Below are positions 2,330 to 60,998 of a stretch of 63,242 nt of DNA, in pieces (the stretch's first letter is position 1; every line of letters starts with the position of its first letter). The translations under genes and the position numbers were made by a program. The notes beneath the pieces were generated by a model. That model saw nothing but the letters and a program-made list of their open reading frames with translations. It was not told where the DNA came from and ran no database searches. This stretch comes from a virus (Duplodnaviria > Caudoviricetes): IMG/VR virus record IMGVR_UViG_3300032294_001820, positions 1 to 63,242 of that record; one strand, written 5' to 3'.

Positions 2330-2332
2330 GGC

Positions 2333-2590: not shown

Positions 2591-2597
2591 AACTATA

Positions 2598-2906: not shown

Positions 2907-2950
2907 GGCTTAAAAATTTTATGTAAATGTATAGAAAATTAGACACTTTT

Positions 2951-3235: not shown

Positions 3236-3238
3236 TTC

Positions 3239-5993: not shown

Positions 5994-6006
5994 ATACCAA
6001 AATTAA

Positions 6007-7053
6007 TTAATTTTCACTTACACCCCATATAATATCCAAAACGAAATCTTTCTTTTCTTCGCCATAAACCAACAGAAAACTAACCTTAACAGAGTTTATA
6101 CCCTTTATTTTGTTTGGAATGAAAGAAAATTTAATTGTTTTGCTGTCATATCCACCTATCTCAAATGGTTGTGCATCCGGTCTTGAAACAACAGAAATTA
6201 ATTCTCCTCCTGTAATCGTAGCACCCAAAACAGAAATAGCCCTATCGCTTACAGCATTTATCTTTATTTGTGCCGTAATGAGTTCAGGAGTATCAATTTT
6301 GCCTATTTTAAGACAATCGCCAACTAAATCAGATATTTCTTTAACAGGAGTTCTCGCTTGGCCATTTATTTTTATAGGCAAAACGGAAATGCTAAAAGGC
6401 AAATCAGAGTTATCGTACCCCTCAACTTCAATGTTTATTTTAAACTTAGAGGTAATATCTATCCCTCCAGCTCTGTAATTTACACACAAAGCAGATTTAA
6501 GTGGGTCAATCCCTGATATAATATTTACTGCAACGGTCTTTGTTACAGATTTACCTGGAGCAATTACGAATGGCTGAAAAGAGCCAAAGATAACGCAACC
6601 ATGTATATTGCAATTGAAACTAAGTGCTTGTACTTCATATTCGCCCGTATTTTTTAATTCAATATTGTGGTCAAATGCTTGACCAATTTTCAGCGTTCCA
6701 AAGTTAAGGCTTTTTTCACTTATTTCAATACCTGCCATAAACTCAATAATCTTAAACTCAACCTTTTCTACCTTGTCCCCAGATACAAAATCCACCGAAA
6801 CAAACACCTCATTCGTAGAAATATACCCTGCTTCAAAACCAATAATACATACCAACGCACCCTTCTTAAACGGAACTTCACCTATTGAAATGCCATTTTC
6901 ACTTATCCAATTGTACATCGGCAACAACTTAAAATGCTTGAAATCAGCATCTTTTACATGGATAAATACCTGCTCCTCCAAAGATTCTCGGATAACTACT
7001 ATCCTATCCTGCATTCCTGCATGAATTATATTGCTATGTGGTTTGATTGTCAT
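6007..7053 (-). CDS. Ig-like (ASH / choice-of-anchor D type) domain protein
   Basis: SLNFGTLKIGQ...IELKNTG...FVIAPGKSVT motif typical of ASH-type Ig folds. Confidence 0.55.
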   Translation of the reverse strand: MTIKPHSNIIHAGMQDRIVVIRESLEEQVFIHVKDADFKHFKLLPMYNWISENGISIGEVPFKKGALVCIIGFEAGYISTNEVFVSVDFVSGDKVEKVEFKIIEFMAGIEISEKSLNFGTLKIGQAFDHNIELKNTGEYEVQALSFNCNIHGCVIFGSFQPFVIAPGKSVTKTVAVNIISGIDPLKSALCVNYRAGGIDITSKFKINIEVEGYDNSDLPFSISVLPIKINGQARTPVKEISDLVGDCLKIGKIDTPELITAQIKINAVSDRAISVLGATITGGELISVVSRPDAQPFEIGGYDSKTIKFSFIPNKIKGINSVKVSFLLVYGEEKKDFVLDIIWGVSEN

Positions 7054-7057
7054 TGTC

Positions 7058-44175: not shown

Positions 44176-44574
44176 ATGAAATTCATTCAAAAATCCCTCG
44201 AATACAGGGAAAGACAAGCAGATTTGCACAATGAAACCAAAGAACTTTCCAGGCTTATTGCCATCAGGGAGAAGCTCGGTCTACCTGCTGGAGATTATAA
44301 CCTGAAACCACAGGCAAAAAAACATCCACTAAAAACCCTCGTTATCCTGCTCGCTATTGCAATATTCACGGGCTGTCAAACCCAAGTGCCAAGCAACTGT
44401 ATTAAAGCAAGCAGAATGTACCGTATTGCCAAAAAGACCCTGAAAACAGGAAAGCACTCAGGGGGATTCTTTCTCATGCACGATTCAACCCACGCATTCC
44501 ATGTATCACCGGGCAAATACCGAGTTATCCGGAACTACTATTTAATTGACAATCACTTTATTTATGTACCGTAA
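44176..44574 (+). CDS. Hypothetical protein with internal lipobox-like segment
   Basis: Likely start MKFIQK at 44176; contains LVILLAIAIFTGC. Confidence 0.55.
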   Translation: MKFIQKSLEYRERQADLHNETKELSRLIAIREKLGLPAGDYNLKPQAKKHPLKTLVILLAIAIFTGCQTQVPSNCIKASRMYRIAKKTLKTGKHSGGFFLMHDSTHAFHVSPGKYRVIRNYYLIDNHFIYVP

Positions 44575-44577
44575 GTA

Positions 44578-44853
44578 ATGAAAACAACCCTTAAAGACAA
44601 CTACGCAAATGAAGCGTATAAAAAATTCATTGACGACTGCTACCTGAAAATGTCAGTAGCAAAACGGAGATTAGGAATGACCAATAACGAAATTGCCGAA
44701 ATCACCGGGCTTACTCCAGTAACAGTTTCTAATATCATCACCGGAAAAGCAAGTTCAGTACAATCTGTTATTGCAGTCCTGCATTGTCTTGATATGGACC
44801 TTAAAGCTCGTAACAGAGAAGGGTTCCAGGAAAGGAGAAGGGAAGATATATGA
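44578..44853 (+). CDS. XRE-family HTH regulator
   Basis: MTNNEIAEITGLTPVTVSNIITGK motif. Confidence 0.8.
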   Translation: MKTTLKDNYANEAYKKFIDDCYLKMSVAKRRLGMTNNEIAEITGLTPVTVSNIITGKASSVQSVIAVLHCLDMDLKARNREGFQERRREDI

Positions 44854-45050
44854 AATCATTAATTATTTGGCAGTTAATCTATTGGGCACCGTTCATTTGT
44901 TACTTAATCTGTGCAGTATTTTTGAAACGGATCAGGGGATACAATTGCTATTCAGACATATTGATTAACACTTTCCTATCCTGCTTCATGGTAACATGGT
45001 TCGTAGCATGGCATAATCTCTATGAGTTAATTACTGACAAGCACAGGTAG
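44850..45050 (+). CDS. Small two-TM membrane protein
   Basis: Two hydrophobic helices; ATGA overlap. Confidence 0.6.
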   Translation: MKSLIIWQLIYWAPFICYLICAVFLKRIRGYNCYSDILINTFLSCFMVTWFVAWHNLYELITDKHR

Positions 45051-45067
45051 GATTGATTGATTAGGTA

Positions 45068-45107
45068 GAAAAAAAAGAAACCGGGCTGTAATTAGTCCGG
45101 TTTTTTT
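45068..45107. terminator. Bidirectional intrinsic terminator
   Basis: AAACCGGGCT/AGTCCGGTTT stem flanked by A- and T-tracts between convergent units. Confidence 0.85.
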
Positions 45108-45185
45108 ATGCTTTTTATGGTAGGTTCAGGGCTGATATTAACCTGAGAAAACAGGGTGAAATTATACACGAATCACCGGGTAAAA

Positions 45186-45347
45186 TTACTCCGGTTGTCC
45201 GTCCGGCAACGAATGTTTTTTAACAAACTCGATTAAGACATCCAATGCCTCAGTAATTTGGCGTGGTGTGTATTTCATTTCATCAATCAGTCCTTGTCGA
45301 TACTGCTGATGATATTCAAGTATTTCGAGGGCTTTGTCTTTACTCAT
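45186..45347 (-). CDS. Small hypothetical protein (53 aa)
   Basis: Hand-translated MSKDKALEILEYHQQYRQG...PRQITEALDVLIEF...*, overlapping the previous stop. Confidence 0.6.
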   Translation of the reverse strand: MSKDKALEILEYHQQYRQGLIDEMKYTPRQITEALDVLIEFVKKHSLPDGQPE

Positions 45348-45783
45348 AAACCCACACTCCTTTCAATGTTGCGTCTGGGTGCGTGGCGGGAATTAATTGC
45401 CAAATCTCCAAAGCATGATTATAATATCGCACCATCTTCACCTCAATCGCAATTGGGATGCGTGGGGTGCGGAGGGATGCGATAAAGTCATCAAATGAAT
45501 CAAATGGCTCAAGTGTTCTACCGTAAGCGAATGCCTGAGCCATATCGTACAAGGTAAACTCGTACTTCTCACGGGCTTTGGAGTAACCTCTAACAAAGCC
45601 ACTTTTCAAATCTTTATTTAAGTCGTATGGATTACCTCCTCTGATGCTATCAATGTCAGTTCCGTATTGGGATTCAGCCATCCCCTCAATATCATCATCC
45701 TGATAATTTGGTATCTTAGGCAACTTGTACCCCTCCAATTCGGGGCAGGTTAGTTCGGGGGTTAGTTTAAATGTTTTTTTCAT
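45340..45783 (-). CDS. Hypothetical protein
   Basis: 147-aa ORF. Confidence 0.65.
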   Translation of the reverse strand: MKKTFKLTPELTCPELEGYKLPKIPNYQDDDIEGMAESQYGTDIDSIRGGNPYDLNKDLKSGFVRGYSKAREKYEFTLYDMAQAFAYGRTLEPFDSFDDFIASLRTPRIPIAIEVKMVRYYNHALEIWQLIPATHPDATLKGVWVYE

Positions 45784-45784
45784 G

Positions 45785-45940
45785 TTAATTACAATCGTTT
45801 AATTCAAATTCAATGATTTTTGAAACTTTCCTGTACATAAAATAATAGAAGTCTGGATAATAATTACTTCGATTCAATCTCCTTGCCTCGATTCGGTTGC
45901 GGATGTCGGAGGGGCGGATTATTTTTTTGTGGATAAACAT
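45785..45940 (-). CDS. Small hypothetical protein (51 aa)
   Basis: Hand-translated MFIHKKIIRPSDIRNRIEARR...ELNDCN*, filling the gap exactly. Confidence 0.45.
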   Translation of the reverse strand: MFIHKKIIRPSDIRNRIEARRLNRSNYYPDFYYFMYRKVSKIIEFELNDCN

Positions 45941-45943
45941 ATT

Positions 45944-45998
45944 TAAATTGCTGATTGTCAGATATGGTTTAGAATATTGTTGCGTAAAGCCTGTTGTT
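45944..45998 (+). other. attI-like landing pad A
   Basis: IHF-like box (AATCAGCAATTTA on minus, 45944-45956), N23, TTGCGTA, N7, TTG^TT; same layout as pad B. Confidence 0.6.
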
Positions 45999-46803
45999 AG
46001 CTGCCATGCCGTGACAGCCTCCGTTAAAACATTCGTAGTTGTGATTTGAAGTCATTAAAACGCTTTTTAGATTTTTCGTAATAATCGGCATCAATCTCAA
46101 ATCCAACAAAGTTGAACCCACCTTTGTCCGCTGCTATTCGTGAGCTTCCACTTCCCAAGTGAGTATCCAAAATCAAATCCCCACGCTTTGCATAGTTCTG
46201 TAAAATCCAATCATACAATGCTACTGGCTTTTGTGTGGGATGTATCCGTTCTTCTTTGTCCTTCATATTCTGTTGTAACATTCCGTTCCATCTCCATTGA
46301 AACTTCCTTACTGCAGTATCAAATGAAGTCCAAGCCAATTCACAATCAGCGAAGTTTCCTGTATTGTCTTTATCCCACACAAGCCAGCAGCTACTATCGT
46401 GTGGCATTTTACTAATAAAGTGATTAGCCCCCCACACAATTTGATTTTTGGATACTCTAAACAGTTGGCGGAAATATTCTTCATTTGGTGGCTGTTTATC
46501 CCATTCTTTAGCTCCGTAATCCTTAGCTTTACCTGCGTTGTTTCCGCCAACCTTCCCAGTTTTAGCCACGTCAATCCCATAAGGTGGGTCAACTATCGCT
46601 AAATCAAAATGGTTATCGTTAAAGCGTTTTAATGCCTCCGTGCAGTCTTCTAAATAAACTTCGGTGAAAGGCACGGCAGCTAACACGGGTTTGGCAAAAG
46701 CGGGGCTTCCGTTTTCCAAATCAACTTTTGTATGTAAATCAAATTCTGTCATTCTATTAAACTTTTGTGGTTAAATTCCCCGCCTTCGCCAAGCCCGAAA
46801 ACG
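45997..46803. mobile_element. Integron-like gene cassette 1 (807 bp)
   Basis: Start GTTAGCTGCC (45996) is the exact reverse complement of GGCAGCTAAC (46675), which opens its attC-like hairpin. Confidence 0.8.
46024..46752 (-). CDS. DNA N6-adenine / N4-cytosine methyltransferase (beta class)
   Basis: IVDPPY, HPTQKP and LDTHLGSGS motifs. Confidence 0.92.
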   Translation of the reverse strand: MTEFDLHTKVDLENGSPAFAKPVLAAVPFTEVYLEDCTEALKRFNDNHFDLAIVDPPYGIDVAKTGKVGGNNAGKAKDYGAKEWDKQPPNEEYFRQLFRVSKNQIVWGANHFISKMPHDSSCWLVWDKDNTGNFADCELAWTSFDTAVRKFQWRWNGMLQQNMKDKEERIHPTQKPVALYDWILQNYAKRGDLILDTHLGSGSSRIAADKGGFNFVGFEIDADYYEKSKKRFNDFKSQLRMF

Positions 46804-46812
46804 TTATGTGCC
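46675..46812 (+). repeat. attC-like site 1
   Basis: ...CTAAC, 20-nt arm 46686-46705, loop, 20-nt arm 46778-46797 (17/20 complementary), AAAAC, GTT. Confidence 0.8.
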
Positions 46813-47134
46813 ATTAATAGACACCACTCCAAGTACAATTGTGATACGGCTTCTTAATGTCGTTGCCGTTTTTGCCTCTTAATTTAAGAGAGTTGGTTCT
46901 CTTAAATCCAAAGTTTTTAAAATAAGCGACCTCAATAAACGGCAACTTAAATCCGAATGAATAATGAAAATGGTGTATGTAATGAACACCAGTAAGCAAT
47001 TGAATTAATCTAAATTTTTTCATCTGTTTTTAAATTTTAACGGCACATAACAAGGGCTTTGCGTAATAGCCCTATCAAGTGTCGTGGTTAATTTTAAGTT
47101 TCTACTAAGGGCTACTACGCAAAGCCCCGATACG
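46804..47134. mobile_element. Integron-like gene cassette 2 (331 bp)
   Basis: Start GTTATGTGCC (46803) is the exact reverse complement of GGCACATAAC (47042). Confidence 0.8.
46814..47023 (-). CDS. Small basic hypothetical protein (cassette 2 cargo)
   Basis: 69-aa ORF filling the cassette, with an A-rich leader. Confidence 0.55.
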   Translation of the reverse strand: MKKFRLIQLLTGVHYIHHFHYSFGFKLPFIEVAYFKNFGFKRTNSLKLRGKNGNDIKKPYHNCTWSGVY

Positions 47135-47140
47135 TTACCT
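47042..47140 (+). repeat. attC-like site 2
   Basis: ...ATAAC, arms GGGCTTTGCGTAATAGCCCT / AGGGCTACTACGCAAAGCCC (19/20), CGATAC, GTT. Confidence 0.8.
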
Positions 47141-47524
47141 CTTTACCCCTATCCAAAACCCATCCCCACTAATCGGGTATCGGTCAACCCGTTTGAATTC
47201 GAGTTTGCCCGGTGTAATGCGATAAATCAGGGCTTCGTTATTCCAATCAGTAACATCCCAGACCTGAACGAAATAATGCGAGTGTTTGCCGTAAAGTTTG
47301 ATAATAACGGCACAATCCGAGGCGAGTGTATCTTTATCGGACATAAACCAATCGGGGTACAAGCAGGACAAAGGAATAGCATCGAAGCCTTCGTAAACCT
47401 CGTTACGATTCAAGTCTATTAGTACCGTATCTTTTGGAATTTCGTTTCGGGTAAGCGTCCATCCGGCATAGTATTTATCGGATTCAAGTGCCCATAGTGG
47501 GTGTGTTGATGGTGTGAATGTCAT
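47135..47524 (-). CDS. Hypothetical protein
   Basis: 129 aa; its TAA stop forms the GTT core that closes array A. Confidence 0.65.
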   Translation of the reverse strand: MTFTPSTHPLWALESDKYYAGWTLTRNEIPKDTVLIDLNRNEVYEGFDAIPLSCLYPDWFMSDKDTLASDCAVIIKLYGKHSHYFVQVWDVTDWNNEALIYRITPGKLEFKRVDRYPISGDGFWIGVKR

Positions 47525-47697
47525 GATACGCTAAATGTTTTACCTGTTGATGTTTCGCAATAATACCTGCCTATTAAACCGTTTCTATAATGGAAATCGT
47601 TTGCAACAGATATTGCATGATTGTCTGAAATTGCTTCAAGTTTAAATTCTTGAATATTTACCCCACCGGAAATCTTGAACATTATAAATGTTATCAT
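47521..47697 (-). CDS. Small hypothetical protein (58 aa)
   Basis: Hand-translated MITFIMFKISGGVNIQ...GKTFSVS*; ATGA overlap; follows an ECF-like motif. Confidence 0.55.
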   Translation of the reverse strand: MITFIMFKISGGVNIQEFKLEAISDNHAISVANDFHYRNGLIGRYYCETSTGKTFSVS

Positions 47698-47705
47698 ACT
47701 CCTTA

Positions 47706-47730
47706 TACGCTATTCGTTCCAAAAAGTTAC
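47706..47730 (-). promoter_or_regulatory. ECF-sigma-like promoter GTAAC-N16-CGTA
   Basis: Followed by TAAGGAGTATG. Confidence 0.65.
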
Positions 47731-47846
47731 TTGCCCGTCTTAACTATCCTCAATATTGTCGATTCGGCTTTGCCGTACATTTTGGCTATGTCGTAGATTG
47801 ACATTCCACACTCGTAAAATGCAAGGATGTATTGGGTTTCGGTCAT
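47727..47846 (-). CDS. Mini HTH protein (39 aa)
   Basis: Hand-translated MTETQYILAFYECGMSIYDIAKMYGKAESTILRIVKTGK*. Confidence 0.55.
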   Translation of the reverse strand: MTETQYILAFYECGMSIYDIAKMYGKAESTILRIVKTGK

Positions 47847-48625
47847 TTCAATTTCGGGTTAACTCTCAATGATTTCTTCCAGTCCAAGCCGGATGGGAGG
47901 GTGTGGTTAGATTTAAAATCAACTTGATTCCAAGTGCCTTCTCTTCCCATGTTGTGAAGTACACCATACCAGCGACCTTTTCCGATTTCATCAAAACAAT
48001 GCACATTAGCCCAATCCGGAGCCTTCTCCCAATCCACCTGATACGGGTCGGGTTCAGAGTTGCGTAATGATTCAGCCGTTCTAATTATTTCGTCAAGTTC
48101 GGTTTGCGTTGCAATTACATTGTGTTCCTGATGCAATAGGTTAAACAATGGCTGATAATATTCAGCAACTTCCTGTATTGGTTTAGCCGTAACCGATTCG
48201 TGTACGCTGATGTGGTATTGGATAGGTCGGATGGGGCGGTAGCGGTTAGTGGATGGGATTGTAGGATTGTTCCAGATGTAACCAACTTGCATTTGCTCCG
48301 ATTCTGGCACACTCAAAATTATCTCCACCTTCACCCACTTCTCCGCATCTTCCTCGGTGCAGAACTCGTAGCCTTCTGGGAGTAAATGGGTGTAATCGGG
48401 TTCTGAACTATTCGGTTTTTCCGAATGGTTCAACTTCCCAAAATTATTCGGAATGTGCTGTTCGGCTAAGTGTGCCTCGATTCGCTCAATCCTTAATTGA
48501 AGTCTGTCAATTTGTTCCTGTTTTTTCCCCATTGGTTTAATTATATTAATGATTTCCTGCATATCTGAATCGGTTGCAATCAACCCCAATTCATGTAGAT
48601 AGTTAAATAGTTTTTGGTTTTTCAT
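47843..48625 (-). CDS. Mosaic hypothetical protein
   Basis: 260 aa with an internal repeat LFNxLH...IATxxxxxEII and a C-terminal VDWEKAPDWA module. Confidence 0.65.
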   Translation of the reverse strand: MKNQKLFNYLHELGLIATDSDMQEIINIIKPMGKKQEQIDRLQLRIERIEAHLAEQHIPNNFGKLNHSEKPNSSEPDYTHLLPEGYEFCTEEDAEKWVKVEIILSVPESEQMQVGYIWNNPTIPSTNRYRPIRPIQYHISVHESVTAKPIQEVAEYYQPLFNLLHQEHNVIATQTELDEIIRTAESLRNSEPDPYQVDWEKAPDWANVHCFDEIGKGRWYGVLHNMGREGTWNQVDFKSNHTLPSGLDWKKSLRVNPKLK

Positions 48626-48978
48626 GGTTTAAATAGATTGCTGGTGATTTTCAAAAGTGAAGGATACCTCCAATTATGCAAGTGCCAAAACTCGCCATTG
48701 CTATTCTCGACAACAAATGAACCATTTCTATATAAAACCTCTCCCAAAACCTCTCCTGTTATTCTTACTCGCATTCCTTCAAATATTTTATCTGCATTTT
48801 TATCGCACAACCCCGTAAACTGCCCAACGCTGTCGGGGTGAACGGGGATAATATCAGTTAGGCTATTTATTTCAATTGGAAGAATCCATTTTTTATTTAT
48901 CTCACATTGAATCAAATCACCCTCAACCCACTTGTTTAGGCTTTCTGAGAAGCCTCTAAATAGTATTATTCTTTTCAT
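48622..48978 (-). CDS. YopX-family protein
   Basis: ILFRG...WVEGDL...VGQFTGLCDKN..KIFEG motif. Confidence 0.85.
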   Translation of the reverse strand: MKRIILFRGFSESLNKWVEGDLIQCEINKKWILPIEINSLTDIIPVHPDSVGQFTGLCDKNADKIFEGMRVRITGEVLGEVLYRNGSFVVENSNGEFWHLHNWRYPSLLKITSNLFKP

Positions 48979-48986
48979 ACTCCTTT

Positions 48987-49019
48987 TACGCTTACTTACT
49001 CGGTTTTGTTACAAATGTA
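48987..49019 (-). promoter_or_regulatory. ECF-like promoter (48987-49012) plus TACATTTG box (49012-49019)
   Basis: GTAAC-N17-CGTA followed by AAAGGAGTATG. Confidence 0.65.
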
Positions 49020-49071
49020 AGTTGTTGATGTTCATATGTGAATTATGGTAGTATTGCGTATATTTATTGTT
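49018..49071 (+). other. attI-like landing pad B
   Basis: IHF-like box (CATCAACAACTTA on minus, 49018-49030), N23, TTGCGTA, N6, TTG^TT. Confidence 0.6.
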
Positions 49072-49822
49072 AGCGGAAAGCATTAGCACCCTGCTTATCA
49101 TTGAACATTTTTACCCTTTGTTCGTCAATTTCGTATGCTATAAAATTCCTATTTAATTCTTGACAAACTTCGCCAACTATTCCACTCCCAAAAAACGGGT
49201 CTAAAACTATCCCATTATCAGGGCAAAAGCATTTAATAAGTATCTGTATTAAATCTTTCGGCTTTGCAGGTATTTTTCCCGTATGTGGCTTATTAAAATG
49301 ATAGTGGTCTCTTATCCAAGTTCCTTCATCTGATTTATCAAATTGCCTTCCTTCCGCTTTGTAGTCTCCAAATACCTTACTACTTCGCTTCATTGATTTT
49401 GTGCCTTCATTGTAATCTAATCCAGTTCTTACATCTACATAAAAGTCTTTGCTCAATGTAAGCCAAAAAATTTTTTGGAAGGATACAAGTGGCATTCGCT
49501 TACTTACCCAAGCACCACCATTTGAAAAACTCCAAATAATTTCACGCCTAAATATGTGGTTTACTTCGTTCCGCAATTCGTAATCAAATGGTTGCTTAGT
49601 GAAGCAAATAATATTTCCAGTTAGTTTTGTAACCCTTACTGCTTGACAAATTAAACCTTCTTCGCAAAGTTTATCCCAATCCTGATAATCGGGGTCTAAT
49701 ATTGTTAAGTCAATACTATGGTCATCTAAATCGCAAATTAAATCCATTGCGTTACCGAGAATTAACCCATGCCTTCCGCTAACATCGGTTTGGCAAAATG
49801 GGGGCTGACTGCTTTCTATCAT
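49070..49822 (-). CDS. DNA N6-adenine / N4-cytosine methyltransferase (beta class, DPDY variant)
   Basis: ILDPDY, PAKPKDL and VLDPFFGSG motifs. Confidence 0.85.
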   Translation of the reverse strand: MIESSQPPFCQTDVSGRHGLILGNAMDLICDLDDHSIDLTILDPDYQDWDKLCEEGLICQAVRVTKLTGNIICFTKQPFDYELRNEVNHIFRREIIWSFSNGGAWVSKRMPLVSFQKIFWLTLSKDFYVDVRTGLDYNEGTKSMKRSSKVFGDYKAEGRQFDKSDEGTWIRDHYHFNKPHTGKIPAKPKDLIQILIKCFCPDNGIVLDPFFGSGIVGEVCQELNRNFIAYEIDEQRVKMFNDKQGANAFR

Positions 49823-49902
49823 CTTTTATCTGTTATTGAACATTAGTAATTCTAATCGGCTTTTGTTGGTATAATTCCCCCACTTCGCCAAGCCCGAAAA
49901 CG
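49070..49902. mobile_element. Integron-like gene cassette 3 (833 bp)
   Basis: Start GTTAGCGGAAAGCAT (49069) matches the reverse complement of ATGCCTTCCGCTAAC (49769-49783) at 14/15. Confidence 0.8.
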
Positions 49903-49908
49903 TTATTC
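49771..49908 (+). repeat. attC-like site 3
   Basis: Same AAC-to-GTT length as attC1 (124 nt); shares TTTGGCAAAA and CTTCGCCAAGCCCGAAAACGTTAT, with compensatory changes in the stem. Confidence 0.8.
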
Positions 49909-50211
49909 CTCCATCGCCTTCCTTGCAATATTTTCCCGGAACAAATCTTTCCTACTGCAATACAAATCCCACATAGCCATTTCTTGCGAAGTTATCTGGT
50001 CAATGACCAAATCTGTTTGATGAATTGAAACCAAATATAACGCCTTGTTAGTGATTGCTTCTTTCCGCCAATACATTTCATTGGTTTTGGAAATATCTCG
50101 CCGTGTTGAGGCTGTAATCCACGCTACGATTAATCCGGCACAGATAAAGGTCATCAGGTAGAATCCGAACTTGTAATAAAATCGGTAGGTATAGGAGGAG
50201 GGCATTTTCAT
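49903..50211 (-). CDS. Single-TM hypothetical protein
   Basis: FYLMTFICAGLIVAWI; its TAA stop forms the GTT core that closes array B. Confidence 0.6.
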   Translation of the reverse strand: MKMPSSYTYRFYYKFGFYLMTFICAGLIVAWITASTRRDISKTNEMYWRKEAITNKALYLVSIHQTDLVIDQITSQEMAMWDLYCSRKDLFRENIARKAMEE

Positions 50212-50468
50212 AATTCGTCCTGTGTGTTGTTTGGTGTTAAATTATACCTGTTTAAATAATCCACTCCGATATGAGGCACATTGTCCCTTATGTAGAATTG
50301 GCAGAATTTAATTTGCACGGCTTTGAGGTCGCTGTACGGCACTAATTCGATTCCAGATTTATTACTTGCAATCATCCGGTAAAGCATGATTTTTAGATTC
50401 TCGTTCTCGTATTGTAACGATTCGAGGCGTTTCTCTAATTCCTGAACTTGTTGGGATAGTTTGGTCAT
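50208..50468 (-). CDS. Hypothetical coiled-coil protein
   Basis: 86 aa with ATGA overlaps. Confidence 0.6.
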   Translation of the reverse strand: MTKLSQQVQELEKRLESLQYENENLKIMLYRMIASNKSGIELVPYSDLKAVQIKFCQFYIRDNVPHIGVDYLNRYNLTPNNTQDEL

Positions 50469-50968
50469 ACTATCACCCCCATGCTTTCCTTAATTCCTTC
50501 CGAAATCGTCTGGTTGACTACGGGGTAAGTGAGTTCGTGGATGTCGAATTGATTATTATTCGCTATAAACCTAATTAACATTTTTCTTCTCGGTCTTTCC
50601 CAATTAACTTTTTTTAGTTCATTGTAGAGATTATCCATAGCGTAATACATACCACGATTAAACAACATTTCCAACATAGCCCATGGTCTTACATCGTATA
50701 GTTCAAACCTATTTACATCGTCCCTATCTTTCAGTTCCCAATCTTTCCGCCAATCAAGTGAATCATGGTTAAAATTATGCTGAACGGTCTTGACATTATT
50801 ATCCCGGTCAAACTGAACCAAGCACGGCTTACCGCCCGATTCGATTTGGAAATTCTTTAGTTGGTCGTAATTATCGAACTGGCAATACAAGGTCTGGCCG
50901 TTCGGTAAAATAGCCTCGGCAAGTGCTGGGCAGTCTTGGGGCGTTTCGTGAAGTTTGGTCATAATCAT
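50465..50968 (-). CDS. Hypothetical protein
   Basis: 167-aa ORF in a tightly packed operon. Confidence 0.6.
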   Translation of the reverse strand: MIMTKLHETPQDCPALAEAILPNGQTLYCQFDNYDQLKNFQIESGGKPCLVQFDRDNNVKTVQHNFNHDSLDWRKDWELKDRDDVNRFELYDVRPWAMLEMLFNRGMYYAMDNLYNELKKVNWERPRRKMLIRFIANNNQFDIHELTYPVVNQTISEGIKESMGVIV

Positions 50969-51397
50969 TTATACGGTTTTAGGTTCATTTTGTTTCACCA
51001 AGGTAGCCAACATTTTCAGAGCGTCTTTATCCCCGATTGAAATTAATCCGCTGAAATCGTCTCTGTGATGCATTACCGTAGTGTGGTCAATATACCCGAG
51101 CATATTGGCTGTGTCTTTCAGGCTCAAGTTATTCAACTCAGTTAGGTAGTAACACAATGCTTTTCGAATGTTTATAATTTTCCTCAGCCTACATTTTGAC
51201 CGGATGGATTCTGGAGTGAATCCGTAATATTTAAGCCATTCAGAAAGGTCTTCAATCTTTTGAATTTTCCGCTTCGATATGTCGGGAGCAAGTGCTTGCA
51301 ATCGTCTGCGTTGTTCCTCGTATATCATATCGCTCAATGCTTGGCTGACTGCTTGCTGTCCGCATAACTTTACGGCTCGGTGGTATGCGTTGCTCAT
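50969..51397 (-). CDS. DnaA C-terminal-like HTH protein
   Basis: SKCRLRKI...RKALCYY...LSLKDTANMLGYIDHTTVMH. Confidence 0.75.
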   Translation of the reverse strand: MSNAYHRAVKLCGQQAVSQALSDMIYEEQRRRLQALAPDISKRKIQKIEDLSEWLKYYGFTPESIRSKCRLRKIINIRKALCYYLTELNNLSLKDTANMLGYIDHTTVMHHRDDFSGLISIGDKDALKMLATLVKQNEPKTV

Positions 51398-51666
51398 ATC
51401 TCAAACACCTTAACAGCCTCAACCAAACTCAAATCTACCTTATCCAAGCCATGACAAATAGTGCTGGGATGTTGGTTGTAAATCGCACCTATCTCTTCAC
51501 AGGTCAATCCTTTTCGCCTGAGATTCCACGCAATCGCTCGTCTGATTGCAACTATCTCTCGGTATTGGATACCGCTCAGGATTAATTCTTTCGTTACTGG
51601 CATCCATGTGTCGGTAAGCCTATTTTGCTTATCTCGCAGTCGGTATTTTAATTGGTTCTCGTTCAT
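51394..51666 (-). CDS. DnaA C-terminal-like HTH protein
   Basis: REIVAIRRAIAWNLR..GLTCEEIGAIYNQHPSTICH. Confidence 0.7.
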   Translation of the reverse strand: MNENQLKYRLRDKQNRLTDTWMPVTKELILSGIQYREIVAIRRAIAWNLRRKGLTCEEIGAIYNQHPSTICHGLDKVDLSLVEAVKVFEI

Positions 51667-51857
51667 TTTATAGTTATCGTTATTTCCAAAATCTTAACTA
51701 TTTCCATCAGCCTCGGAACGCTCAAAGTCGTTATTTGTCGTTCCATTCTGGTGTACTGCTGTTTGGTCATGTGAAGTTTGTCTGCCATTTCATTTTGACT
51801 TAAACCGATTAATTTCCGAGTGGTTCGGATTTTGTGAATTAGTTCGGGGTAGGTCAT
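51663..51857 (-). CDS. XRE-family HTH regulator
   Basis: LSQNEMADKLHMTKQQYTRME motif. Confidence 0.8.
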   Translation of the reverse strand: MTYPELIHKIRTTRKLIGLSQNEMADKLHMTKQQYTRMERQITTLSVPRLMEIVKILEITITIK

Positions 51858-52054
51858 ATTCCATCCTCCATTTTAGATTTCCGTTCCTCGTCACCTCGGC
51901 TGTTGGCATCCCACCACGCCATGGTTTCAATGTCCATTGTTTCTTCTGGAATGTCGTGGTGCGGGCATCTGCCTTTTTCTTCACAGCACCCAACTACATT
52001 ACAGCAGTTACCATCGCATTCACCGTTTAAGCATTTTACTTCATTAGTTTCCAT
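51854..52054 (-). CDS. Small Cys-rich hypothetical protein
   Basis: 66 aa, overlapping both neighbours at start and stop. Confidence 0.5.
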   Translation of the reverse strand: METNEVKCLNGECDGNCCNVVGCCEEKGRCPHHDIPEETMDIETMAWWDANSRGDEERKSKMEDGI

Positions 52055-52423: not shown

Positions 52424-53236
52424 TTAATTGTCTGGAGTAATATCTAACGGAAGTTCTCCATTGTTTGTTTCAGGTTGTTCTTGTTGCTGAACAAACAACT
52501 CATTCAAATTAGGCTTCTCAACAATGAACTGCTGATTATCCAAGTCAATTACATTGCTAATCTGCTCAGACTTCGGCAAATACTTGTAGTGCCTCTTAAT
52601 TACGGTTTTCTTCCGCATTTCATCAGCCCAATTACTTTCCTGCCAAGGACTATATTGAGAGTTTGCACCATCACTTTTACTTTTAATCTTCTCTAACTCC
52701 CATCCAGGCATAAACTCATAATCAAGGCTTCCATCTGCTAATGTAGCACAGGAATATGCCCCAATTACTTTCCTTGCCATGTGTTCCTTCTCGGTTTCAG
52801 CATATCTTTGCTCATGTACTACGACCATTCTCGTACTTGCATTGTACTCAAATTGTTCATCGTCATAAACAACTACTGCTGATACCTTCTTTACGCTTCC
52901 TGAATCAGTAAGAATCTTTGTCAAACCCATATAAGAAGGGTCAAGTACGGCTTTCCCTTTGCGTGGGATAAGATATGCCAACTTCATTGCAGGATTCAAT
53001 GTAAGCCCTGTAAATGCGATATTCTCAACAGCACTACGAATGCTCACTAAATCAACATTCTGCCACCCTTTAGGATTGTTCTGAATAATTTGCAAGGCAA
53101 AGTTAGCCTCCTTGACAAATGTTTCCTGTGGCATTACGGATAGGAACCTCGCTTTTGCTGCTGCGATAGCCTCTGAAGGGGTAGTGATTTTTGCAGGTTT
53201 ATTTTCCTGCTTCTGAATTGCGTTTGTTTCTGACAT
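52424..53236 (-). CDS. recT: RecT-family ssDNA annealing protein
   Basis: GLTLNP...AYLIPR...SYMGL, SPW...EMRKKTVIKR..KYLPKS. Confidence 0.9.
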   Translation of the reverse strand: MSETNAIQKQENKPAKITTPSEAIAAAKARFLSVMPQETFVKEANFALQIIQNNPKGWQNVDLVSIRSAVENIAFTGLTLNPAMKLAYLIPRKGKAVLDPSYMGLTKILTDSGSVKKVSAVVVYDDEQFEYNASTRMVVVHEQRYAETEKEHMARKVIGAYSCATLADGSLDYEFMPGWELEKIKSKSDGANSQYSPWQESNWADEMRKKTVIKRHYKYLPKSEQISNVIDLDNQQFIVEKPNLNELFVQQQEQPETNNGELPLDITPDN

Positions 53237-53251
53237 GATTATTGGTTTAAA

Positions 53252-54130
53252 TTAAAGTTCTACTAATCCAAATTCGTTTGTGGCAAAGTATTCTACTCCT
53301 GGCCATTTAACACCCTCCATCCAAGGTTCTCCAAACTTATCAAGGCAATCACGATAAATCTGCTTCGCACGAGTGTAAATAGTCTTTCCTGCACTAACAG
53401 AATAATCCTGCCAAACAGAGTTAAATTCACCTGGAGATTGTGGCACCAAGAAAAATCCGTTCTGTTGGCTTTCTTTATGACATCCAATTACGATATGATA
53501 CTTGGTTTCGATACCCATTGTTACCTCTACGGCTTCGGTATAAACTGCTAATTGAGCATGAATAAGCCTATCTCTGTGCTTAATGTAGGTTTTCATACTT
53601 TCAATATCAATGTCGGGTAGTTTCTTTAAGTCGCCTATTACAGCAAATCCTGAAACAACTTTGAACAAATCCACTTTGCCTTTCATGGGAATATTGTACT
53701 CAGTGTCTATCCAATGAAATTCCTTCTCTACTTCGGCATCGCTGAATAGTTGCTGATAGATTGGAGATTTACGAACATTTCCTGCGGTACTCATAATTTC
53801 ATCCCAATCTTCTTGTTTGATAATTGGAGTTACTTTATCGAGTTCGCATTGATTTAGAAATTCATCCCGGATGCCTTTGTTTACTGCGGATCGAAATTCA
53901 ATCTTACCTTCTTTGTTGCGTTCAAGCCTTGTGTCTGCAAGTAGTCTGAATCTATTAAAGATTTCAGTTTGTTCCATTGTTGCTGTATGGATAAACTGCC
54001 CGTGGTTCATTGCTTCTGTGGTTTCGATGCCATTAAGCAGGTAGTATTGGTAGTGTGCAGGACTTTTCAGAATATGCTTTATTCCTGAACTGCTGAAACG
54101 GGTTTTGTCTGAGTAATATATTTGGCTCAT
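53252..54130 (-). CDS. RecE / exonuclease VIII-like PD-(D/E)XK nuclease
   Basis: SSSGIK...SPAHY, KGKVD...GDLK, QLAVY; adjacent to recT. Confidence 0.8.
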   Translation of the reverse strand: MSQIYYSDKTRFSSSGIKHILKSPAHYQYYLLNGIETTEAMNHGQFIHTATMEQTEIFNRFRLLADTRLERNKEGKIEFRSAVNKGIRDEFLNQCELDKVTPIIKQEDWDEIMSTAGNVRKSPIYQQLFSDAEVEKEFHWIDTEYNIPMKGKVDLFKVVSGFAVIGDLKKLPDIDIESMKTYIKHRDRLIHAQLAVYTEAVEVTMGIETKYHIVIGCHKESQQNGFFLVPQSPGEFNSVWQDYSVSAGKTIYTRAKQIYRDCLDKFGEPWMEGVKWPGVEYFATNEFGLVEL

Positions 54131-58651: not shown

Positions 58652-60157
58652 TTAAAATGGAGATTCTTCTGTGTCTGAAGAACTTGGTTCAATAAACTTA
58701 TCGCTTGGTGAAAATGGTTGATGTTTATACTCTTGGGAGTTGTTGTTTGCGTACTTAACATACTGCCCAAATCGAATGTAGGCTTTATCAAACCTTGTCA
58801 TTACAGCCCCTGTTTTGCCATTCCTATGCTTTGCTACATGAAGTTCAGCCATATCAACAGAAGGAGTTTCTCCATCTGTCATCATTTCCTCTTTATAGTA
58901 TTCAGGTCTATGTGGGAATATTACCATATCAGCATCCTGCTCAATGGCACCTGATTCACGCAAATCAGACAACATTGGTATATTGCTACCTTTCCCCCTG
59001 CTTTCAACTGACCTATTCAACTGAGATAGCATAATCACAGGAATATCACACTCCTTTGCAATTACTTTTAGGTTACGGCTTATAAAGGATATTTCCTGCT
59101 CTCTGTTTCCGCTAAAGTCATTTCCAGCATTCATCAACTGCAAATAGTCTAAAATCAAAAGTTTAATCCCAAAGTCATGAACCATTCTTATTACCTTAGC
59201 CTTTAACTCAAAAATACTAATCCCTGCTGAATCGTCAATGTGAATAGGCAAATCCTTAATTGACATTGCAACTTCCTTGAATTGATTAAACTCATACTGA
59301 TTCAACTTTCCAGACCTAATTTTTTCAGATTCTACCTCTGATTCCATTGATTGAATTCTAAATGTCAATTCGCCATAACTCATTTCCAAACTAAAAACAG
59401 CAACCGGATACTTTGCCTTACTCGCTGCTAAAGCAAAAAACAAAGCAAGTGCAGTTTTGCCCATTCCAGGTCTTGCCCCAATTACGATAAGATTCTGTTT
59501 CTGCCATCCAGAAGTAAGTTCATCCAATTGGAAAAATCCTGTTGGTATTCCCGTAACACTTGCTGTAATTGCCATTCTCCTTGACAATTCGTCAATATTT
59601 TCTAATGTAATCCTCTCAAAAGAAACTGAACTTCGCTTGTATAGGGATTGAATAAGGGAAAATGTTTGAGATTGCAAATGGTCTAAAAGTTCAAAAGCAT
59701 CTACAAATGGATCAAAACCCATGTTTTTAATATCATTTCCTATTCTTATCGCATCCCTGACTATATGTTTTTCCTGAATAGTCTTTGCCTGATATTCAAT
59801 ATTTGTTGGATTAACAATGTTATTCCCTAATGAAACAATAAACTGAATACCTCCGACATATTCAAGTTTTCCGGTAGATTTTAATTTTTCAACAACGGAA
59901 ATCAACTCAATTGGTTGGTTTTCCATAAACAGCAATTGACATACTTCGAAAATTATGCCGTATTTCTCAAAATAAAACCACCTCTTGTCCAAAGCAGACA
60001 TAATCTGAGGTATAGTGTCAGGATAGTAAACTAATGCCGTACAGATGATTATTTCGGATTCTTCGCTGTATGGAGGAGTTAACCCTGCAACAAAAGCGGA
60101 TTGGTCAATTTTTGGCTTTTCTTCTTGGTAGCCTTTTTTTCTTCTATTATTGTTCAT
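58652..60157 (-). CDS. dnaB: Replicative DNA helicase DnaB
   Basis: GARPGMGKT, FSLEM, DYLQL, SQLNR, SDLRESGAIEQDAD and KHRNG motifs. Confidence 0.97.
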   Translation of the reverse strand: MNNNRRKKGYQEEKPKIDQSAFVAGLTPPYSEESEIIICTALVYYPDTIPQIMSALDKRWFYFEKYGIIFEVCQLLFMENQPIELISVVEKLKSTGKLEYVGGIQFIVSLGNNIVNPTNIEYQAKTIQEKHIVRDAIRIGNDIKNMGFDPFVDAFELLDHLQSQTFSLIQSLYKRSSVSFERITLENIDELSRRMAITASVTGIPTGFFQLDELTSGWQKQNLIVIGARPGMGKTALALFFALAASKAKYPVAVFSLEMSYGELTFRIQSMESEVESEKIRSGKLNQYEFNQFKEVAMSIKDLPIHIDDSAGISIFELKAKVIRMVHDFGIKLLILDYLQLMNAGNDFSGNREQEISFISRNLKVIAKECDIPVIMLSQLNRSVESRGKGSNIPMLSDLRESGAIEQDADMVIFPHRPEYYKEEMMTDGETPSVDMAELHVAKHRNGKTGAVMTRFDKAYIRFGQYVKYANNNSQEYKHQPFSPSDKFIEPSSSDTEESPF

Positions 60158-60998
60158 TTGTCAGTTGTGGTGGTGGTGGATTAAAAAATATTGTTTGACT
60201 TTTAATTTCTTCTGCTACCTTTTCTCGTTTGCGAATATCTGCAATAACAGGGCTGTTTTTTACAGATAGTGCCTCCCTTGCGTTTTTCATCACCCAAGAC
60301 TTACGCAAAACCGATTCATCTCGGACATATAACTCTTTCCCGCAATATCTGTCATTCTGTGCTTTGTAGAGGTCAAGTTGAATTATCATTTCATGAAGCA
60401 TAACCTTACCAAATTCCTTCAATAGTTTATCGTAATCCTGCCTTCTTAGGTAAACTAATTCATTTCCAAGTTTAACCTGCTCCTTTCCATCTTCCTTCAT
60501 CTTAGCCAAAAACTCTTCCTCGCTTAAAAAGTTTTTCTTTTTTCTTTTAGGTGAAACTTTGTTTACAGGTAAACTTTGTTCTTCTTGGGGTAAACTTTGT
60601 TTACTCAATAAGATTATAGAAGAATTATTTATACTATGTATATCTTCTTTTAATATATTATTGGGTAAACTTAGTTTACTCCTTTCGTTAACTTTGTTAA
60701 CCGGTAAACTTAGTTGACCGGTAAACTTAGTTAACCCCTCCTGATTTACCATTAACCATCCTTGTTCATTCTTAATCAGTAAGTTACGCTCAATAAGTCT
60801 CTGAATTGCTTTCAACAAACCTACCTTGCTCATGCCGAACTCTTCCGCAAGTCTTAACTTACCTACATAGCACCATCCTGAACCATTTTGGTCATACTCT
60901 GAAAAGTATCTAATCCTTTCAAGCAATCCAGCCTCAACAAAGGAAATGTTTAATTCCTTCATCAAAGCCAGATTGACCATTACGAATGATTCTTTCAT
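60147..60998 (-). CDS. Replication initiator (lambda-O-like, N-terminal wHTH)
   Basis: GWCY...LAEEFGMS...IQRLIERNLL HTH, internal iterons, upstream of dnaB. Confidence 0.75.
   Translation of the reverse strand: MKESFVMVNLALMKELNISFVEAGLLERIRYFSEYDQNGSGWCYVGKLRLAEEFGMSKVGLLKAIQRLIERNLLIKNEQGWLMVNQEGLTKFTGQLSLPVNKVNERSKLSLPNNILKEDIHSINNSSIILLSKQSLPQEEQSLPVNKVSPKRKKKNFLSEEEFLAKMKEDGKEQVKLGNELVYLRRQDYDKLLKEFGKVMLHEMIIQLDLYKAQNDRYCGKELYVRDESVLRKSWVMKNAREALSVKNSPVIADIRKREKVAEEIKSQTIFFNPPPPQLTNEQ
60552..60735. repeat. Iteron array / putative replication origin
   Basis: Seven GTAAACTTWGTTWAC-like quasi-palindromes (60552, 60569, 60590, 60665, 60687, 60704, 60721) around an AT-rich gap at 60605-60664. 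Confidence 0.8.

Follow-up and report, generated by a model that had tools for sequence, protein, structure and literature searches.

How can a phage hold genes packaged like integron cassettes and yet encode no recombinase of its own? This question is raised by a stretch of 63,242 nt from a virus of the Caudoviricetes (IMG/VR record IMGVR_UViG_3300032294_001820, estimated to be 90% complete), which we call here the window. A sequence-only reading had delimited three units in it, at 45997-46803, 46804-47134 and 49070-49902, and these positions stand as first placed. We consider it likely that the three units are mobile cassettes, and that they belong to an integron-like site-specific recombination system peculiar to Bacteroidota and their phages.

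Each of the three units ends in the same way, as xTAAC-A-stem-loop-stem-nnnAC-G|TTA (Table 1), and in all of them the 15-16 nt that precede the hairpin (R'') are the reverse complement of the start of the very same unit. In a repeat search, R'' matched its own unit start at 15/16, 14/15 and 15/16 for units 1, 2 and 3, so the complementarity first given as 10/10, 10/10 and 14/15 holds and runs longer. This own-start footprint is real, and far above chance. The single mismatch per arm pair is not noise either, as its position is fixed: counted from the G it is always position 11, where the unit start has A and R'' has C. One small caveat to the claim that R'' does not match the start of the next unit concerns unit 1, whose R'' also matches the following start at 8/10 because the starts of units 1 and 2 are alike. 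As for the cargo, the methyltransferases of cassettes 1 and 3 match PF01555 (E 8e-19 and 6.2e-23, respectively), the former also matching PHROG methyltransferase families, while the 69-aa ORF of cassette 2, whose start codon lies outside the hairpin, has no match in Pfam or PHROG. The stop codon of the cassette 3 gene is the TTA of G|TTA.

Table 1. Positions in the window of the cassettes, their sites and flanks, and the adjoining backbone genes.
Feature	Position	Strand	Details
Flank of array 1, R'' (attI-like) side	45941..45996	+	G|TT points 45979|45980 and 45996|45997
Cassette 1	45997..46803	+	body is an N6/N4 DNA methyltransferase gene, - strand, 46024-46752
Arm pair, unit 1	45995-46010 / 46670-46685		16 nt, 94% (repeat search)
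Site 1	46670..46806	+	R'' 46670-46684 (ends TAAC); spacer A 46685
Site 1 arms	left 46686-46705, right 46778-46797	+	
Site 1 loop	46706-46777		contains gene start codon 46750-46752
Site 1 right end			spacer AAAAC 46798-46802; G 46803; then TTA of next unit
Cassette 2	46804..47134	+	69-aa ORF, - strand, 46814-47023
Arm pair, unit 2	46803-46817 / 47037-47051		15 nt, 93% (repeat search)
Site 2, short form	47037..47137	+	R'' 47037-47051; spacer 47128-47133; G 47134
Hairpin 2 stem	47054-47073 / 47108-47127		20 nt, 95% (repeat search)
Backbone gene, 129 aa	47135..47524	-	the final G|TTA of array 1 supplies its stop codon, TAA
Flank of array 2, R'' side, attI-like	49005..49069	+	ends ...GCGTATATTTATTG|TT at 49069
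Cassette 3	49070..49902	+	N6/N4 DNA methyltransferase, - strand, 49070-49822
Arm pair, unit 3	49068-49083 / 49769-49784		16 nt, 94% (repeat search)
Site 3	49769..49905	+	R'' 49769-49783; left arm from 49785; right arm 49877-49896
Site 3 loop and end			start codon 49820-49822 in loop; spacer 49897-49901; G 49902
Backbone gene, 102 aa	49903..50211	-	3' end shortened by array 2

In the repeat search, sites 1 and 3 were 86-87% identical direct repeats that show the compensatory stem change already noticed (GCGGGG/CCCCGC versus TGGGGG/CCCCCA), and the window has two copies of the 21 nt at their right end versus 0 in 100 shuffles. The right spacer is indeed 4 nt longer than the left (1 and 5 nt in sites 1 and 3, 2 and 6 nt in site 2), and with its 1 x 5 nt spacer and no evident extrahelical bases the site type is aptly called a non-classical attC. 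By eye, the fixed irregularities of the aligned sites are mismatches, with no bulges. Among 14 aligned sites, in which TAAC and GTTA are invariant (14/14), compensatory changes are found at 15 of the 18 stem pairs; 83.7% of the cells are paired versus 64.1% in shuffles, a level that 0 of 500 shuffles reached, and one stem pair is A.C in 14/14 sites. The covariance model built on these 14 sites (R1) matches exactly sites 1, 2 and 3 in the window, with scores of 112.3, 67.6 and 107.2 bits, and a Rfam scan of the window gave zero family matches, attC included. When both strands are folded, the - strand is the more stable in 3/3 sites. In the circle form it reaches -31.0, -31.6 and -28.7 kcal/mol for sites 1-3, versus -22.2, -27.2 and -20.6 kcal/mol, and this form folds more stably than that of the array.

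That the units are bounded by G|TT points is borne out by near-isogenic cultured phages. When hemulen6-1 is set against stinky9-1, sniff9-1 and lillamy9-6, with which it shares blocks that are 99.4-100% identical, all 16 intra-array block ends fall between -12 and +10 nt from G|TT, and a 434-nt insertion in sniff9-1 narrows the crossover to C-G-T-T-A. The homology of Flavobacterium phage hemulen6-1 to the cassette 1 region is restricted to 45992-46794. In metagenome contigs from other studies, the match to the window sets in at 45996, 46803 (or 46801) and 49069 and breaks off right after GTTA, with loose ends after 47137 and 49906; site 1 was also found alone in a 1214-nt contig with unlike flanks.

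Two further expectations concerned the relatives of this phage. A different cassette at the same point is indeed present after the 129-aa gene, in the relative L006 and at five more loci (four contigs), and the 12-nt end GCGTATATTTATTG borders the different cassette of L006. The exact empty alleles that had been predicted were found neither among the relatives nor at the metagenome joints. Relatives without cassettes also lack an attached flank of 55-65 nt, which we read as attI-like: it is missing together with units 1 and 2 in four contigs, and together with unit 3 in 7/7 relatives, where the upstream gene continues in place of the array 2 flank. Two metagenome joints are also devoid of it. 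The array 1 flank resembles that of unit 3 and, loosely, the flanks beside recombinase genes, and AT-rich ends like that of the array 2 flank occur beside the recombinase genes of G006, G004, G005, G014 and G044. The 17 nt between the two G|TT points of the array 1 flank resemble what a lost cassette would leave behind. Comparison with L004, L005, L006 and L009 shows that array 2, on inserting, truncated the 102-aa backbone gene at its 3' end: in relatives this gene is longer by 7-8 codons, of which the window keeps a remnant at ~48990-49010. In array-free relatives the 129-aa gene stops with TGA, overlapping the next start codon.

The architecture extends well beyond the window. At least 120 genome stretches of viruses and at least 120 of Bacteroidota contain it, it fills the early operons of cultured Flavobacterium phages, with 15 sites in each, and a hairpin search of viral and Bacteroidota DNA showed that the sites accompany hundreds of other genes. 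The own-start rule (upstream GTT[AG]+11, match of at least 8/11) holds for 133 of the 162 viral sites that have 1.5 kb of sequence on either side, and for 7 in the downstream control; matches to the adjacent start most often reach 3/11. Bacterial sites obey it in 68/110 cases versus 0/110 in the control, and the position-11 mismatch recurs in 128/133 viral and 62/68 bacterial sites. The polarity of the genes relative to the site is opposite in phages and bacteria. In bacterial arrays 135 genes lie on the site's strand versus 6 on the other, in a survey where polarity is ambiguous for 150/276 viral and 82/223 bacterial sites and the scanner misses many sites.

Which enzyme would act on these sites? 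Searches of the window for PF00589, PF00239 and phage-recombinase homologues all came back empty, so that no tyrosine or serine recombinase was found there, in agreement with the sequence-only reading. Tyrosine recombinases are likewise missing from 18 of the 23 virus records that are at least 90% complete and from three cultured phages. Most array-bearing phages have none, and in those, exchange would need an outside enzyme within a short infection. Arrays beside a tyrosine recombinase, which the same reading had proposed to look for, do exist in bacteria and in some phages. The gene flanks the array on its R'' side, both in G005, G006, G004 and G008 (as a fragment in the last of these) and in the phage records G044, G014, G022 and G041; in temperate phages, such a neighbour could simply be the lysogeny integrase. 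A support of 100/99 separates the array-adjacent enzymes from the housekeeping Xer proteins that the same bacteria encode. The candidate recombinase is not IntI but a Xer-like enzyme that lacks the insert which IntI requires to act on folded attC. It matches TIGR02249 in two pieces and with 202 (G005), 181 (G006) and 201 (G004) bits for a cut-off of 265, and its residues 250-272 replace residues 181-246 of VchIntIA (2a3v), 23 versus 66. R1, which stands for one hairpin subfamily, matched 20 of 61 sampled genomes, and a recombinase is present in 17 of these 20 versus 30 of the 41 others.

We picture the system as follows. One cassette consists of one gene and one hairpin site, and it would be excised as a circle, closed where its terminal G meets its initial TTA, giving a single long hairpin. 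The R stem of this hairpin would measure ~15 bp, with AGTAYT-N5-TAAC facing GTTA-N5-AAT... and a G.T wobble fixed at position 11. An asymmetric internal loop of 1 x 5 nt would separate it from a further stem, of ~20 bp and likewise with one fixed G.T wobble, which a variable loop would close. The well-folding strand is the bottom strand, the - strand in the window, and would be the single-stranded substrate. A tyrosine recombinase would carry out the strand exchange at G|TT, its partners being two sites, or one site and an attI-like flank rich in AT. The chromosomal enzyme may be the Xer-like recombinase encoded beside the array, with a putative capacity to recognise the hairpin. Since the phage has no recombinase, the two arrays of the window (units 1 and 2; unit 3) are integrase-less and would change only with a recombinase provided in trans, as we infer for them, by the host or a co-infecting phage. 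As the phage genes run opposite to the site strand, the reverse of bacterial cassettes, the hairpin lies at the 5' end of the gene, often with the start codon in its loop. The cargo of two DNA methylases fits accessory anti-restriction genes.

Mobile cassettes are not the only way to read these arrays. The hairpins could act as portable homology, in the manner of the promoter-stem-loop cassettes of T4-type phages, on which the phage RecT and exonuclease swap genes by homologous recombination, without any site-specific enzyme. The window encodes RecT (52424-53236) and a PD-(D/E)XK exonuclease (53252-54130), and both the missing tyrosine recombinase of most array-bearing phages and the likeness of sites 1 and 3 (86-87%) would suit such shuffling. 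However, each of the 16 internal block ends maps to the R' end of a site; the arms, though equally conserved, contain none, and neither does the TAAC end. Homology alone leaves the own-start complementarity of R'' and the position-11 wobble unexplained, and the sites of one phage array are often strongly divergent in sequence, all of which makes this explanation unlikely. The sites might instead be ordinary attC sites, in a canonical CALIN served by a true host IntI, and in fact the R''...TAAC and G|TTA boxes, the better fold of the bottom strand and the own-start rule are as in attC. Their 1 x 5 nt spacer and 20-bp stem, however, differ from the geometry of classical attC sites, and the array-adjacent enzymes, which lack the IntI insert, stay at 181-202 bits versus the TIGR02249 cut-off of 265. 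IntI1 was reported to recombine in E. coli one site of Polaribacter phage P12002L, in which we recognise the same architecture by eye, and to do so on the bottom strand only (Qi 2023, PMC9892861), a result that also counts as published support for the mobile-cassette reading. The accessible parts of the same report count 17 CALINs in 10,705 phage genomes with Flavobacterium phages unmentioned, and those of the IntegronFinder 2.0 paper (PMC9024848) give almost no integrons in Bacteroidetes, so we regard the canonical version as quite improbable.

It has also to be considered that the hairpins may be RNA elements of the early mRNA, involved in processing, stability or translation control, the pairing of the flanks being an RNA panhandle and mobility being secondary. 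In phages the coding strand is the well-folding one, its fixed non-Watson-Crick positions are all G.U except one, and in units 1 and 3 an A-rich leader and the start codon sit in the loop. Yet the bacterial sites are opposite relative to the genes (135 versus 6), so that in bacteria it is the poorly folding strand that is present in the mRNA, and in short sites, that of unit 2 included, the hairpin does not contain the start codon. The left arm is read in different frames in sites 1 and 3, and exchange at G|TT is a property of DNA. The hairpin arm pairs are not among the 8 terminator-like sites (mean of 4.1 in shuffles), and promoter-like sites number 16 versus 14.1 expected, with a sigma-70 consensus that may not fit Bacteroidota. 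An RNA role as the main one thus seems very improbable to us.

If the units are mobile cassettes, as we favor, they invite comparison with several known systems. The promoter-stem-loop (PeSL) cassettes of T4-type phages, reportedly described by Arbiol et al. in 2010, likewise have repeated stem-loops that flank accessory genes, hyperplastic regions and gene shuffling; each gene has an early promoter and a stem-loop, and the shuffling is ascribed to homologous recombination. In our arrays, by contrast, G|TT is the fixed exchange point and a self-complementary footprint marks every unit, and these fixed crossover points speak against PeSL-type exchange by homology. In the CTX phage, XerCD integrates folded single-stranded whole-genome DNA at dif, so the putative action of a Xer-type tyrosine recombinase on a single-stranded DNA hairpin would be common to both; arrays and a cassette footprint, however, are found here and are not known from CTX.

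Much closer are the integrons and CALINs, including those of phages (PMC4889954, PMC9892861), whose described features also comprise single-gene cassettes, hairpin ends with ...AAC and G|TT, an own-start R'', crossover at G|TT and a better-folding bottom strand; the CALINs of virulent phages are also integrase-less and also carry DNA methylases (PMC9892861). The own-start R'' of integron cassettes is found in the window and in viral and bacterial sites, the R''/R' boxes of attC recombined at G|TT are recovered as well (TAAC/GTTA in 14/14 sites; block ends), and if the sites count as attC-like, the window holds a CALIN, defined by at least two neighbouring sites without an integrase near them, with sites 1 and 2 adjacent, site 3 2.8 kb off and no recombinase in the 63-kb record. 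An integron integrase, with its ~35-residue domain near patch III (Cury 2016), is absent, the window having no PF00589 match. Unlike in integrons, the recombinase found beside such arrays has no IntI-specific insert, the R stem is of 12-15 bp with a fixed G.T wobble in sites that are usually ~130 nt long, the spacer is 1 x 5 nt with no evident extrahelical bases, and the phage genes are on the opposite strand and start inside the loop. From the accessible parts of the published attC screens, these appear to pick up few such arrays. The rAID-1 arrays (Ross 2019, 10.1101/471110; 10.1101/2025.05.03.651265) have a tyrosine recombinase of the XerD family and, behind it, as many as ~30 short co-oriented genes, and their repetitive intergenic sequences were likened to integrons (10.1101/471110). 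Chromosomal arrays of Flavobacteriaceae match this layout, those of G005 and G004 in outline. As far as the accessible descriptions go, rAID-1 arrays belong to gut Bacteroidales and carry immunity genes, with hairpin anatomy, crossover and phage link absent; the window differs from them in having no recombinase, three cassettes only, methylase cargo and no immunity genes.

Taking these comparisons together, we lean slightly towards a second, IntI-independent integron lineage. It would combine a Xer-family recombinase without the IntI insert, bottom-strand sites with G.T wobbles and no extrahelical bases, and separate bacterial (rAID-type) and viral cassette pools of opposite polarity; the viral pool would build whole early operons, of at most ~8 of 39 kb, and reshuffle at G|TT the genes that bear on host range, DNA methylases among them, including in virulent phages that have to borrow the enzyme.

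Parts of this picture are anticipated by Qi 2023 (phage CALINs) and Ross 2019 (rAID-1 arrays), as far as these are accessible; our literature search returned no paper that links phage CALINs with rAID-1 arrays or gives the site anatomy, and array biogenesis was still called open in 2025 in the accessible text on rAID (10.1101/2025.05.03.651265). In Baltic Flavobacterium phages, methylase content is described as tracking plating efficiency on alternative hosts (Nilsson 2020, PMC7077304), and our comparisons show that the methylase genes of the cultured ones sit in cassettes exchanged at G|TT. The arrays also point to a phylum-wide blind spot of the standard integron finders. Since culturable phage-host pairs with 15-cassette arrays are available, excision, strand choice and cassette genesis can be tested at the bench. 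If the reading proposed here is true, the base-pair precision with which Bacteroidota phages acquire and shed accessory genes would be accounted for, and phage CALINs and Bacteroidales rAID arrays would be joined by one site type and one recombinase family.

Two arrays of a widespread integron-like system of Bacteroidota lie in the window, array 1 with two cassettes and array 2 with one, and neither has an integrase (Table). Direct reading bears out the three units of the sequence-only reading, which had each of them end in AAC, a hairpin and GTT: on the + strand, every unit closes with ...xTAAC-A-arm-loop-arm-nnnAC-G and is followed by TTA, and the genes of the region lie on the - strand. The same reading had the stretch that ends in TAAC before the hairpin (R'') as the reverse complement of the start of its own unit, and a repeat search recovered this pairing in all three units. 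Sites 1 and 3 are direct repeats of 86-87% identity, and the compensatory change first noticed between their upper stems is confirmed. Their 21-nt right end has two copies in the window and none in 100 shuffles. The reading frame across the left arm differs between these two sites, so that what is conserved is nucleic acid and not protein. An Rfam scan of the window at the gathering threshold gave no match.

Features of the window, with the pairing of R'' and own unit start and the protein matches
Feature	Position	Content	Basis
Unit 1 (array 1)	45997-46803	N6/N4 DNA methyltransferase	PF01555, E 8e-19
Unit 1 arm pair	45995-46010/46670-46685	R'' vs own start 15/16	repeat search
Unit 2 (array 1)	46804-47134	69-aa protein	no known family
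Unit 2 arm pair	46803-46817/47037-47051	R'' vs own start 14/15	repeat search
Unit 3 (array 2)	49070-49902	N6/N4 DNA methyltransferase	PF01555, E 6.2e-23
Unit 3 arm pair	49068-49083/49769-49784	R'' vs own start 15/16	repeat search
Gene between arrays	48622-48978	YopX family	
Gene pair, - strand	52424-54130	RecT-family annealing protein; PD-(D/E)XK exonuclease	PF03837, E 1.8e-27; DUF3799
ORF beside DnaB helicase gene	60147-60998	weak RepL match	
Repeats inside that ORF	60557-60730	inverted and direct, GTTTAC-containing	custom hairpin scanner
Large ORF, - strand	7058-14578	2506 aa; ORFs of 1125 and 1550 aa come after it	

A distant blastn search of positions 44500-52000 against phage records matched in one part only, 45992-46794, which is cassette 1, and it matched the methylase region of the cultured Flavobacterium phage hemulen6-1 and its kin (68.6% identity). 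This region has the same architecture unit by unit, every R'' matching its own start. We aligned 14 sites, three from the window, five from hemulen6-1 and six from filifjonk9-1, another cultured Flavobacterium phage. TAAC and GTTA are invariant in this alignment. Of the 18 stem pairs, 15 vary on both sides, and a single position of the stem has A.C in 14/14 sites. Paired cells amount to 83.7%, against 64.1% in shuffles, none of 500 reaching the observed value. The covariance model of these 14 sites, R1, finds exactly three sites in the window and 15 each in hemulen6-1 (39 kb) and filifjonk9-1 (38 kb), all on one strand and spanning the whole leftward early operon. The proposal to search for the hairpins in Bacteroidota genomes and viral contigs proved fruitful: the pattern of conserved ends was found in at least 120 IMG/VR contig stretches and at least 120 genome-contig stretches, and the genome records among the matches listed are nearly all Bacteroidota. 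R1 gave 288 sites in 80 viral loci among the matches listed, and 167 sites in the 55 bacterial loci scanned, from 80 among the matches listed. It found no site in the Polaribacter phage P12002L, for which a relaxed scanner gave seven candidates, three of them with an own-start match of 8-9/11; by eye, the methylase region of this phage shows a shortened version of the architecture described here. A search with positions 1700-10100 of locus L017 showed that at least three Vibrio phage and at least two Flavobacterium psychrophilum phage records match part of the hemulen array, which may reflect cassette sharing across hosts.

The own-start rule was examined with a custom site scanner, less sensitive than R1, and only sites with 1.5 kb on either side were counted; a match was GTT[AG] followed by at least 8/11 bases predicted from R'', within 1.5 kb upstream. 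Such matches were found for 133/162 viral sites, against 7/162 in a downstream control, and for 68/110 bacterial sites upstream against 0/110 downstream. When R'' of the viral sites is compared with the physically adjacent start the mode is 3/11, in agreement with the early remark that R'' does not match the GTT run after the hairpin. The full 11/11 is reached by no site. At position 11, the start has A and R'' has C in 128/133 viral and 62/68 bacterial sites; on the - strand this pair reads as a G.T wobble, and so does the invariant A.C position of the stem. The + strand corresponds to the top strand of integrons, and the - strand to their bottom strand. Both strands were folded with DNA parameters, as had been suggested, and the - strand was the more stable one in all three window sites. 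The predicted fold gains 7-12 kcal/mol in stability when the circle junction is reconstituted, compared with the array context. We infer that the cassettes pass through a circle and that the substrate is single-stranded.

Two backbone genes led to seven related IMG/VR loci each. Units 1 and 2 are absent from four related contigs, and a different cassette of ~490 nt, which brings a hairpin of its own and an own-start match of 14/16, stands at the same point in four contigs (L006 plus five other loci); different cassettes at the same points are what the sequence-only reading had proposed to look for. Unit 3 is absent from 7/7 relatives. The exact empty alleles that it had also foreseen (...CCTGTTG^TTACCTC... 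and ...TTTATTG^TTATTCC...) were not found in the 7+7 related loci, since the cassette-free relatives are also missing the R''-side flank of 55-65 nt, nor in the contigs of four sequencing runs. This attI-like flank ends in ...GCGTATATTTATTG^TT beside unit 3 and in ...GTGTATATTTATTG^TT beside the L006 cassette, and flanks beside array-adjacent recombinase genes bear a weak resemblance to it in the AT-rich words that precede G^TT. Between the two arrays the backbone is mosaic, with breakpoints away from the G^TT sites, and its YopX-family gene is shared with one relative (L005) and absent from the remaining ones. Elsewhere in the window, the RecT-family protein and the exonuclease beside it are a RecET-like recombination pair, and the GTTTAC repeats, false positives of the custom hairpin scanner, may be origin iterons.

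The points of exchange can be read from the hemulen6-1 array, compared with three cultured phages with which it shares blocks of 99.4-100% identity. All 16 block ends inside the array lie -12 to +10 nt from a G^TT junction, and two more lie outside it, at hemulen 1381 (with the Flavobacterium phage sniff9-1) and 10394 (with lillamy9-6, likewise from Flavobacterium). In a further such phage, stinky9-1, the cassettes missing are precisely those that lie from one junction to another. An insertion of 434 nt in sniff9-1 places the crossover within C-G-T-T-A: relative to a single G, the block on one side of the insertion ends at +4 and the block on the other side begins at -1. Plain homologous recombination is argued against by the fact that no array block end lies in the hairpin arms or at the TAAC side. 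In lake-metagenome contigs from other studies, the match to the window starts at 45996, 46803 and 49069 and halts right after GTTA at 46806/7, 47137 and 49906; one contig of 1214 nt has site 1 alone between unlike flanks, and others have the same stems with different, shorter loops.

Bacterial arrays follow the classical order, in which an ORF and the site after it share a strand; in phage arrays the ORF is on the strand opposite to the site. Counting open frames in the 320 nt before R'', we found them on the opposite strand only for 124 viral sites and on the same strand only for two (150/276 being ambiguous), against 135 on the same strand and six on the opposite one for bacterial sites (82/223 ambiguous). 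For this reason the phage genes have the hairpin at their 5' end, where its loop can hold the start codon. A primary role in RNA would be at odds with the opposite polarity of phage and bacterial arrays. Readings as IS200/IS605-type or HUH elements, dif/Xer sites or inverted-repeat transposons were dropped on anatomy, since there is one hairpin per unit and the repeats are unit-specific and differ between units. The inner motif of dif is ATAA/TTAT, and the inner palindrome here is TAAC/GTTA. Of 10 ORFs taken from cassettes of the F. sedimenticola array, eight had no Pfam match, so that they gave no link to immunity functions. This chromosomal array also contains an IS30-like transposase (rve and HTH_38; L258:11251-12243).

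No tyrosine recombinase ORF had been seen at first sight, and the window, a whole IMG/VR record of 63,242 nt estimated to be 90% complete, indeed encodes no tyrosine recombinase, serine recombinase or phage-recombinase homologue. There is no tyrosine recombinase in hemulen6-1, filifjonk9-1 or P12002L either; 10/45 array-bearing virus records encode one, as do 5/23 of those with a completeness of at least 90%. The pattern matches led to four bacterial genomes with R1 arrays of up to ~25 sites. All four have a PF00589 gene where an array has its R'' end, whole in G005, G006 and G004 and as a fragment in G008, so that the expected arrays adjoining a tyrosine recombinase do exist. The gene is likewise at the R'' end in four phage records (G044, G014, G022 and G041). 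The array-adjacent recombinases of the bacterial genomes have PF13495 and PF00589 domains. With NF040815 ('tyrosine recombinase/integron integrase') they score at the cut-off; the integron-integrase model TIGR02249 aligns to them in two pieces, with scores under its own cut-off. Among solved structures, archaeal XerA is their best relative, and a stretch of 23 residues stands where VchIntIA has the 66 that include the IntI insert. In place of the IntI-like recombinase first proposed, the candidate is a Xer-like tyrosine recombinase that lacks this insert. A tree of 20 proteins, with IntI left out, sets three chromosomal and nine phage enzymes apart from eight housekeeping Xer of the same bacteria (support 100/99). 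Such a recombinase would be the enzyme of the system, and it would act in trans on the arrays of the window. Homologues (E <=1e-60) occur in 47/61 genomes sampled from the family to which G005 belongs, and frequently lie no more than 4 kb from the end of a contig. In drafts, arrays and recombinase genes are often at contig ends or take up small contigs entirely, as seen in C23, C24 and C29 of G004 and for many of these homologues; the array repeats evidently break assemblies, so that arrays are probably under-counted in draft genomes.

Related systems have been reported. Applying IntegronFinder and HattCI to 10,705 phage genomes, Qi 2023 (PMC9892861) found 17 CALINs (attC clusters without integrase), among them P12002L with two methylase cassettes, one site of which is recombined by IntI1 on the bottom strand only. 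The rAID-1 clusters of Bacteroidales (Ross 2019, 10.1101/471110) consist of a XerD-family recombinase gene, as many as 31 genes in one orientation, and repeats described as 'reminiscent of integrons', and the biogenesis of rAID arrays is called an open question in a 2025 preprint (10.1101/2025.05.03.651265). The accessible text of Nilsson 2020 (PMC7077304) on Flavobacterium phages mentions neither hairpins nor cassettes. In the literature covered, mostly outside subscription journals and exclusive of supplements and figures, the site anatomy, the Flavobacterium phage arrays and the link to rAID are undescribed. According to Cury 2016 (PMC4889954) and IntegronFinder 2.0 (PMC9024848), recombinases without the IntI domain are classed as not IntI, and Bacteroidetes are almost without integrons. 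The Bacteroidota system works like an integron, yet it fails the defining integrase test.
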